From the IMG/VR virus record IMGVR_UViG_2713896897_000001, positions 1 to 7,863 of that record: a DNA stretch of 7,863 nucleotides; one strand, 5' to 3'. Position numbers: made by a program. Positions 3,001-6,000 of this stretch are shown piece by piece (positions within the stretch are counted from its first letter, which is position 1; every line of letters starts with the position of its first letter). The DNA is from a virus (lineage: Duplodnaviria > Heunggongvirae > Uroviricota > Caudoviricetes).

Positions 3001-6000
3001 TGAACTGTGGGGAGCATGGGTTTATTCAGGTCGTCTGGAAAAGCGCATGAGCAGCGTAATAGCGAAGTTCATGGAGAGCGTAGAGCCGGGAAGAGTTATG
3101 ACAAGGCCAATGTGTAATGATGATGATGGAATGTTGATTTCTCAGGTCGTCGATTCCGTCATGTACATTGACAAGAAAGCCTTTGGCATCCTCCTCAGCT
3201 ACTACGCTCATGGATCTTCCAAGCACGCCATTGCATCTTACTATCATCGTGTCGCAAGACCTCGCAAGATGTTATGCCGGGGCGGCGGGCGCATTCAAAA
3301 ACCATCGCTCGCAACCTGTCGCCGGGAAGTTGACGAAATCCTCAATGCCTCGTTGTTTATGATTTATCCGGCTCTGGATAGTGCGTTTAAAAACCGGAAA
3401 CGTGTAGAGAAAATTAAACATATAGCATAGAACGTGTTGACATCATTGAGCAAATGAGCAACACTATTCGCATAAGCTGCCGTTAGTGACTCTTAAGTTG
3501 CAGCGGTGGCTTTTTTTATTTGGGTCAGTCGTATAAAGGTCATTACGGAAGGCTGTTAACCTTCTTATCGTGGTTCGAGTCCACGCTGTCCCGCCAAACA
3601 TGCTGGTTTAGCTCCAATGGCAGAGCAGTCGCCTTGTAAGCGAATGGGTAGCGGTTCAAGTCCGTTAACCAGCACCATAACTGAGCCGTAGCCACTGGCT
3701 ATCCTGAATTCATCAGTGATAGTTATGCTGCGGCCTTCTTTTTTCCCCTTCCCAATATAAGAACTACGCAATCCGTTACTGGCGGAGGCGTTGCTATGAA
3801 ATCAATGGACAAAATCTCAACTGGCATTGCCTACGGAACATCTGCTGGTAGTGCGGGATACTGGTTTTTGCAGTGGTTGGATCAGGTCAGTCCGTCACAG
3901 TGGGCTGCGATTGGAGTGCTTGGAAGCCTTGTATTGGGCTTTCTCACCTATCTGACAAATCTGTACTTCAAAATCAGAGAAGACAGACGAAAGGCTGCGA
4001 GAGGTGAATAATGCCTCCATCATTACGAAAAGCCGTTGCTGCTGCTATTGGTGGCGGGGCTATTGCCATAGCATCTGTGTTAATCACGGGTCCAGGTGGT
4101 GATGATGGTCTGGAAGGTGCCAGCTACATACCATACAAAGATATTGTCGGTGTATGGACTGTATGTCACGGACACACCGGAAAAGACATCATACCAGGTA
4201 AAACGTATACCGAATCAGAATGCAAAGCCCTCCTGAATAAAGACCTTGCCACGGTCGCCAGACAAATTAACCCATACATCAAAGTCGATATACCGGAAAC
4301 AACGCGCGGCGCTCTTTACTCGTTCGTTTACAACGTGGGCGCTGGCAATTTCAGAACATCGACGCTTCTTCGCAAAATAAACCAGGGCGATATCAAAGGC
4401 GCATGTGATCAGCTACGGCGCTGGACATACGCTGGCGGTAAGCAATGGAAAGGGCTGATGACTCGCCGCGAGATTGAGCGTGAAGTCTGTTTGTGGGGGC
4501 AACAATGAGCAGGGTAACCGTTATTATCTCCGCTCTGGTTATCTGCATTATCGCCTGCCTGTCATGGGCTGTTAATCATTACCGTGATAACGCCATCGCC
4601 TACAAAGAGCAGCGCGATAAAGCCACATCCATCATCGCTGATATGCAGAAGCGGCAACGTGATGTAGCAGAACTTGACGCCAGATACACAAAGGAGCTTG
4701 CTGATGCTAATGCGACTATCGAAAGTCTCCGTGCTGATGTTTCTGCTGGGCGTAAGCGCCTGCAAGTCTCCGCCACCTGTGCAAAGTCAACGACCGGAGC
4801 CAGCAGCATGGGCGATGGAGAAAGCCCAGGACTTACAGCAGATGCTGAACTCAATTATTACCGTCTCCGAGGTGGAATCGACAAGATAACCGCGCAGGTT
4901 AACTACCTGCAGGAATACATCAGGACGCAGTGCTTAAAATAATTTTAATTTCACTGAAATTTAACAAGTGACTTTCAGGAAAATGCCTCGCAGATGCGGG
5001 GCATTTTTGTACCGGTATTTCACCGCGCACCGCAGCGCACAATAAACACCGAACCTGACCCTTTGGAATGGGCCTTTGAGGATACCAGTTAGTGCTGGCG
5101 AGCCTCGGTGGGCTGGTTTCCTGTGCGGCAAAGGTTCATTTCAAAGAAGCAGGCAACGCCATGAATGAATTAATTGCGAATCATGACTTCGACTTTCGCC
5201 AGTTAGTTACCGCAGCAGAAGGTCAACCGGTAACTGACACCTTCCAGATTGCCAGGGCATTTGGTAAACGCCATCAGCATGTGATTAGGGCTATTAAATG
5301 TTTGAGATGTTCTGAGGAATTCTCGACAACCCATTTTTGGGCCGTCGAGAAAATCAATGACTTAGGTATTTTTGACAAGAAACAGATTTACTACCGCATG
5401 GACTTTAGTGGCTTCGTTATGCTGGTTATGGGATTTAACGGGGCAAAAGCCGATGCTGTTAAAGAAGCCTATATCAATGCGTTTAACTGGATGTCAGCAG
5501 AACTCCGTAAGTACAGCGAAAGTTATGAAGCAGAACGTAACGCCGTAATGCTGGAGTACATGAAAGAGAAGGATGTCGCCAGCATGTCAGGCCGTCTGCT
5601 CAATCGCTGGGGGAGAACGAAAAAACCTCAATTGCTTGCAAAGCTGGAACGTCTGGAGAGACAGGGACAGTTTTTATTACCGGGATTCGATAAAGGTATT
5701 CAAGCCTGACACATTATGCGCTGTATCGTCGCCGTATTCCCGCATTAACCATGACCGTAGCCCGACGGGGAATTCCTTCTGCGTGAGTGTGCGGGAATAA
5801 TCAAAAACGATGCACACCGGGTTTTACTGTGCTGACAGACGCAGGGTTACCCTCATAGTCGCTTTTCCGGTGCGATGGTGGAAGAAACAGGGATGTTCAT
5901 CCATCATCACTTTGGATTGATGTATATGCTCTCTTTTCTGACGTTAGTCTCCGACGGCAGGCTTCAATGACCCAGGCTGAGAAATTCCTGGACCCTTTTT

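Follow-up and report, generated by a model that had tools for sequence, protein, structure and literature searches.

The 7,863-nucleotide stretch of viral DNA analyzed here (Caudoviricetes; IMG/VR record IMGVR_UViG_2713896897_000001, positions 1 to 7,863), referred to below as the window, contains a Q antiterminator gene, a promoter with tandem TGAGCAA repeats in its spacer, an intrinsic terminator, two tRNA genes, and a lysis cassette, all on the plus strand. The Q gene (2942-3430) encodes a 162-amino-acid antiterminator of the phage 21 type, matches the Pfam family PF06530 (Phage_antitermQ; E = 9.9e-25), and lies immediately upstream of the promoter, its stop codon (3428-3430) being 6 nt upstream of the -35 hexamer. 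The region following the Q gene is almost certainly the switch for late-gene expression in a lambdoid phage or prophage of the phage 21 type.

The -35 hexamer of the late promoter pR', TTGACA (3437-3442; -35 to -30), was read directly from the sequence and corresponds to the minus_35_signal of pR' annotated in the phage 21 genome record OL657228. Downstream of it, TGAGCAA at 3447-3453 is followed by a single A at 3454 and by a second TGAGCAA at 3455-3461. In OL657228, which cites Yin et al. 2019, the Q-binding element (QBE) is annotated as an upstream subsite, QBEu (ATTGAGCA), and a downstream subsite, QBEd (AATGAGCA), and the whole element maps to 3445-3460 in the window. QBEu (subsite 1 of Shi et al. 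2019) occupies 3445-3452 with its TGAGCA core at 3447-3452 (-25 to -20), and QBEd (subsite 2) occupies 3453-3460 with its core at 3455-3460 (-17 to -12). The -10 hexamer AACACT (3460-3465), mapped by alignment with OL657228, is separated from the -35 hexamer by a 17-bp spacer, matches TATAAT at only three of six positions, and shares its first base with the downstream QBE subsite; the weakness of this -10 is by design. The QBE is thus embedded in a sigma-70 promoter in the same way as in the annotated phage 21 pR'. The transcription start (+1), a misc_feature in OL657228, falls at 3472, and the sigma-dependent pause element annotated in that record, TAAGCT(G), occupies 3473-3479 (+2 to +8), so that the initial transcribed region carries a -10-like TAAGCT at 3473-3478 (+2 to +7).

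Shortly downstream of the promoter and ahead of the late genes lies the intrinsic terminator tR' (3474-3517), composed of a hairpin (3474-3512) and a U7 run (3511-3517). It was identified by RNA folding and is annotated as a terminator in OL657228 (3474-3521) and as 'aRNA' in AJ237660, an older partial phage 21 record from 1999. The hairpin is GC rich, with a predicted stability of -20.2 kcal/mol (z = -4.09 against dinucleotide shuffles; none of the 200 shuffles was as stable). At position 3503 the window has G where phage 21 has A, which changes a U-A pair of the terminator stem to U.G and keeps the pairing; this variant was also found on a viral contig with an identical promoter variant (locus L042). 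tR' is the end of a short leader RNA of about 46 to 50 nt, for which Rfam contained no family.

Two segments of the leader, GCCGT (+8 to +12) and CTTAAG (approximately +21 to +26), were conserved across genera (window 3479-3497; loci L017-L040). The leader hairpin formed even where the true terminator was a separate hairpin further downstream, as in Yersinia and Xenorhabdus; in the phage 21 type, the U run is carried by the leader hairpin itself.

Identity with the phage 21 late promoter

In an alignment of positions 3400-3540, every base of 3431-3521 except G3503 was the same as in OL657228, and the longer segment 3380-3800 was 98.6% identical to that genome. The encoded Q protein was identical to the Q21 chains of PDB entries 6JNX and 6P18 at 159 of 162 residues (98%), the differences being E14D, V144A, and V161I. 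Furthermore, the eight residues listed by Shi et al. 2019 as contacting the QBE (S93, K94, H95, R113, A124, T125, R127, and R128) were all unchanged in the window Q.

The phage 21 element itself has been defined experimentally. In the crystal structure, a pair of Q21 protomers occupies a direct repeat made up of two 8-bp subsites, of which QBEu has low and QBEd moderate affinity, the two together being bound with high affinity (Yin, Kaelber & Ebright 2019). The same authors determined cryo-electron microscopy (cryo-EM) structures of the loading complex and the loaded complex, where a nozzle formed by Q stands on the RNA-exit channel (Yin et al. 2019). In the study of Shi et al. 2019, the QBE was located between the -35 and -10 elements, with TGAGCA direct repeats as its subsites; replacement of the C:G pairs at -21 and -13 impaired Q-dependent antitermination; and the Q-engaged complex had a transcription bubble from +3 to +15. 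The window has two TGAGCA direct repeats with an 8-bp period and C at both positions (C3451 at -21 and C3459 at -13). Because -21 and -13 each fall on the C of a TGAGCA, the start at 3472 agrees with the numbering of Shi et al. 2019, and the reported bubble fits the -10-like TAAGCT at +2 to +7. In addition, the oligonucleotide of their binding assay, GCAAATGAGCAACA, was found exactly at 3450-3463 of the window. For phage 21, a pause at +18 and an approximately 10-fold increase in tR' read-through in vitro with Q and GreB have been described.

A single phage 21 record departed from this sequence. In AJ237660 (L002), the downstream subsite reads AAGT-AGCA, as opposed to AATGAGCA elsewhere. This is probably a sequencing error, because AATGAGCA stands in the complete genome of 2021, in the oligonucleotides used for the structures, and in every other locus.

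The initial annotation of this DNA had described a TTGACA -35 after Q, tandem TGAGCAA motifs, a poor -10, and a terminator with a run of seven T residues, and direct reading bore out each of these. Its proposal that the spacer repeats are a Q21-type Q-binding element was upheld by the OL657228 annotation, the two structural papers, and the identity with Q21, and the layout that it had recognized, a pR' producing a short terminated RNA, agreed with both the near-identity to annotated phage 21 and the terminator fold. It had set the comparison with the phage 21 QBE as the test that could refute it; that QBE sits exactly on the TGAGCAA repeats. The frame needed adjustment: the repeat is the same, but the published unit is 8 bp long (ATTGAGCA/AATGAGCA, core TGAGCA), and the 7-mers of the initial annotation stand in a shifted frame.

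A further feature of phage 21 was observed inside the Q gene. On the minus strand, an equivalent of the CII-dependent antisense promoter paQ, which is annotated in phage 21, was present as TTGC-N6-TTGC at 3267-3254 with TAAGAT at 3240-3235; the direct repeat TCGCAAG (3252)/TCGCAAG (3262) on the plus strand is the same CII site.

Co-variation of the Q-binding element with Q

Q21-family loci were collected from Escherichia coli genomes, from one genome per species across bacteria, and from viral contigs by way of three query alignments. The 276 loci with enough downstream sequence came from Enterobacterales genomes and viral contigs. Subsite register was assigned by a fixed rule anchored on the -35 and the pause element; automatic refinement of the register was replaced by this rule, as it put some sites one base out of place and made the co-variation less distinct. 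The same layout followed the Q gene in all 276 loci: TTGAC near the Q stop codon, two direct repeats with an 8-bp period, and then TANNNT. The TANNNT motif lay 35 to 37 nt after the start of the -35 in every locus and was TAAGCT in 177 of them.

Among 91 non-redundant combinations, the downstream cores fell into the classes TGAGCA, TGAGCC, TTAGCA, TTAGCC, and TGGACA and a small number of rare classes, and the core sequence followed the identity of base-contacting Q residues. R128 occurred with G at core base 2 in 52 of 53 cases, the exception being the suspect AJ237660 record, and N128 occurred with T at this base in 36 of 36. Likewise, R95 was associated with C at core base 6 (40/41) and H, Y, or L at residue 95 with A (49/50), while R124 accompanied the TGGACA core in 10 of 11 cases. 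All four combinations of the residue 128 and residue 95 states were found. These counts are uncorrected for shared ancestry, and both states occurred on several different N-terminal backgrounds. The upstream subsite was much more degenerate, with 41 variants versus 14 downstream, in agreement with its lower measured affinity. The co-variation of the repeat sequence with Q residues provides independent support that Q reads the repeats.

Probable exchange of the DNA-binding half of Q with its site

The 172-amino-acid Q of the Sf6/L type, as found in E. coli, was almost the same as Q21 over residues 1-94 and divergent from residue 95 on. The promoter of this type differs up to approximately +1, with TTAGCC repeats and a better -10; identity between the two types resumes at TAAGCTGCC and runs through the terminator and tRNA genes. 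Consistent with this, P22-like phages (Sf6, BTP1, and others) matched the window from 3473 only, sharing 3473-3739 (pause element, terminator, and tRNA genes) but differing in the QBE and in the C-terminal half of Q. Moreover, phage 21-type and Sf6-type QBEs were each also found joined to another transcribed leader, beginning TATGCTGCTGC. The junction at approximately +1 (loci L003-L009, L076, L193, L206, and L227) and the swapped leaders suggest that the half of Q that binds DNA is transferred together with its site.

The comparison of the two classes, phage 21 and phage L/Sf6, is not new. In their paper on the genome of phage L, Zaworski et al. (2021, PMC8022706) proposed AATTATCC/ATTTAGCC as the likely QBE of the L type and had already noted the divergence from residue 94. 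A literature search with the Sf6-type repeat string gave no match, and the paper was found by keyword search; a binding experiment for the Sf6/L-type QBE was not found in the literature searched.

Beyond these two classes, the evidence on balance favors a simple modular recognition code for the Q21-family QBE, in which residues 128, 95, and 124 define at least five specificity classes and the C-terminal DNA-binding half, together with the promoter to +1, is exchanged as one cassette while the N-terminal half and the pause/terminator module stay constant. Such a wider code was not found in the literature searched, and the recognition pattern seen across the family extends the known system modestly. 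Co-exchange of this kind, if true, could keep prophages that share a host from acting on one another's late switches. In addition, the co-variation table could guide the engineering of orthogonal antiterminator/promoter pairs and could help to predict cross-activation between prophages, including Stx2c phages that have this Q allele directly upstream of stx2.

An arrangement involving stx2 was observed in a prophage of E. coli O157:H7 strain 2-6-2 (L005, positions 1500-3597), where a Q21-type Q gene and pR' stand directly upstream of tRNA-Ile/Arg/Arg and stx2A; the QBEu of this locus, GTTGAGCA, differs by one base. This arrangement implies that a Q21-type switch controls Shiga toxin 2 expression in those O157:H7 strains.

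Neighboring genes

The first gene after tR' is tRNA-Asn (GTT; 3522-3596), followed by tRNA-Thr (TGT; 3602-3677); both were detected by ARAGORN and matched Rfam family RF00005 (55.3 and 59 bits, respectively). The lysis genes comprise the S21 pinholin gene (71 amino acids; 3796-4011), a SAR (signal-arrest-release) endolysin gene of the phage lysozyme type (4011-4508), and Rz (4493-4942). They were identified by Pfam families PF04971, PF00959, and PF03245 within 3796-4942, matching the annotation of OL657228. The lysis genes had been expected to come next after the terminator; they do lie downstream of it, but the two tRNA genes intervene, and the holin gene starts only at 3796. A Rha-like gene and then Nu1 follow Rz (Pfam). 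As a whole, the window is a mosaic, and no single sequenced phage matched more than 58% of its length.

Upstream of Q lies the NinG gene (2293-2898). A short open reading frame (ORF; 2895-2951) overlaps both the stop codon of NinG and the start codon of Q and corresponds to the NinH fragment of phage 21, in which N-terminal ninH codons are fused to other codons at the border of lambda homology. Near the left end of the window, plus-strand Rfam matches to c4-a1b1 (564-616), isrK (577-653), and C4 antisense RNA (680-763) directly precede a P22AR/ORF6N antirepressor gene (816-1496). Judged by its sequence, this segment, 564-763 with the antirepressor gene, looks like a P1 immI-like antisense-RNA control module. 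At the other end, downstream of Nu1, a 293-amino-acid ORF on the minus strand (6946-7827) had no Pfam match and is antisense to a region annotated as terminase large subunit A in related phages; it is probably a spurious antisense ORF.

Proposed mechanism and alternative explanations

The following sequence of events would be expected at the window by analogy with phage 21. Sigma-70 RNA polymerase would start at pR' with +1 at 3472 and would pause almost immediately, owing to the rebinding of sigma region 2 to the -10-like TAAGCT (+2 to +7). In the absence of Q, transcription would end at the hairpin and U7 run and yield an RNA of approximately 46 nt. Once Q had accumulated, two protomers would occupy the two TGAGCA repeats between -35 and -10, and the upstream protomer would insert its ring, the nozzle, into the channel through which RNA leaves the paused polymerase. 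Modified in this way, the polymerase would be unable to form pause or terminator hairpins, and the Q-loaded complex would transcribe past tR', first through the two tRNA genes and then through the lysis genes and the remainder of the late operon. That Q binds, that the polymerase pauses, and that antitermination follows has been demonstrated in published work with DNA and protein essentially the same as here and would be expected to hold for the window copy; we infer from the near-identity to phage 21 that this copy is itself active.

No sequence contradiction to a phage 21-type switch was seen, and several observations nevertheless weigh against this assignment. An exact 7-mer repeated at an offset of 8 is expected 0.36 times per shuffled window, so that the repeat taken alone could be due to chance. 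A generic consensus scan of 3300-3900 for promoters and terminators called neither. The window copy differs from phage 21 at three Q residues and at one position of the terminator stem, and the window could come from a defective prophage. The silence of the scanner was rejected as evidence against the feature: RNA folding and the OL657228 annotation show the terminator, and the scanner misses the two elements because the -10 is too poor and the stem is bulged.

The first of these observations leads to the possibility that the TGAGCAA repeat arose by chance duplication in an AT-rich spacer between genes, with no binding role, and that the promoter simply serves to transcribe a short RNA or the tRNA genes. 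The expected frequency of such repeats is in keeping with this, as is the number of TGAGCAA occurrences in the window (3, compared with 1.64 expected). The significance of the repeat, however, derives from its position, its identity to an experimentally defined site, and its conservation in the family, not from its improbability. The same sequence is the structurally solved phage 21 QBE, the two-subsite architecture recurred throughout the 276 family loci, and the repeats change with the base-contacting residues of Q. Chance duplication is therefore effectively refuted by what has been published on the binding, mutation, and structure of this very sequence, and we give it almost no weight. Equally improbable is that the repeats are bound mainly by some other regulator, such as a late-transcription repressor or a host factor, with Q acting elsewhere. 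This explanation was raised because repeats located within promoter spacers are typical of repressor binding, and no support for it was found; crystal and cryo-EM structures place Q21 itself on the repeats, and the co-variation is specifically with Q residues 95, 124, and 128.

A somewhat more serious alternative, though still an unlikely one, is that all elements are present by descent in an inactive relic, the switch being dead in a cryptic prophage. The mosaic window, with no phage matching it beyond 58% of its length, and the occurrence of such cassettes in hundreds of E. coli chromosomes are compatible with a relic, as are E14D, V144A, and V161I in Q and the A-to-G change at 3503. Against this, the Q ORF is intact with its contact residues unchanged, the terminator change preserves pairing, the identical promoter variant is present on viral contig L042, and the genes that follow (tRNA, holin, endolysin, Rz, and Nu1) are all intact, the ORFs with strong Pfam matches. 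The feature itself is not new: the system is a textbook one for which crystal and cryo-EM structures exist, and it touches no open question; the value of the assignment lies in annotation, since the late promoter, Q-binding site, pause, start, and terminator of a phage 21-type prophage are fixed to the base, and the two tRNA genes and the lysis cassette would be placed under Q control.

Comparison with known Q systems

The closest known system is that of phage 21 (PDB 6P18-6P1C and 6JNX/6JNY), in which pR', the QBE, the sigma-dependent pause element, and tR' have the same spacing as in the window and are followed by the same tRNA-Asn, tRNA-Thr, and S21/R21/Rz cassette. The window departs from it by G3503 in the terminator stem and the three Q substitutions and, outside the cassette, by its mosaic upstream part (antirepressor region) and downstream part (Rha-like gene and Nu1).

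The Q of Sf6 and phage L (172 amino acids; Sf6 record of Casjens et al. 2004) belongs to the same family as Q21, with a proposed QBE of AATTA(T/G)CC-ATTTAGCC. Like the window, this type has two direct repeats of 8-bp period between -35 and -10 and an identical pause element, terminator, and tRNA genes. In contrast to the window, its repeat core is TTAGCC rather than TGAGCA, its -10 is better (CATAAT), and its promoter overlaps the end of the Q gene; its Q protein differs from Q21 by H95R, R128N, a different L3 loop, and 10 extra C-terminal residues.

More distant systems share the logic of the switch. Lambda Q and pR' resemble phage 21 in having a promoter QBE, a sigma-dependent promoter-proximal pause, an exit-channel nozzle, and read-through of tR'. 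However, the lambda Q and Q21 families are unrelated according to the literature: lambda Q resembles Q21 in neither sequence nor fold, occupies a nonrepeat asymmetric site as a monomer, needs NusA and a -35-like element next to the pause site, and has its pause at +16/+17. The window does not belong to the lambda type, as the Pfam match of its protein is to PF06530 rather than to the lambda Q family and its site is a direct repeat. Phage 82 likewise has a Q-dependent late switch at pR' with a sigma-dependent pause, located at +25, and its Q represents a third, unrelated family.

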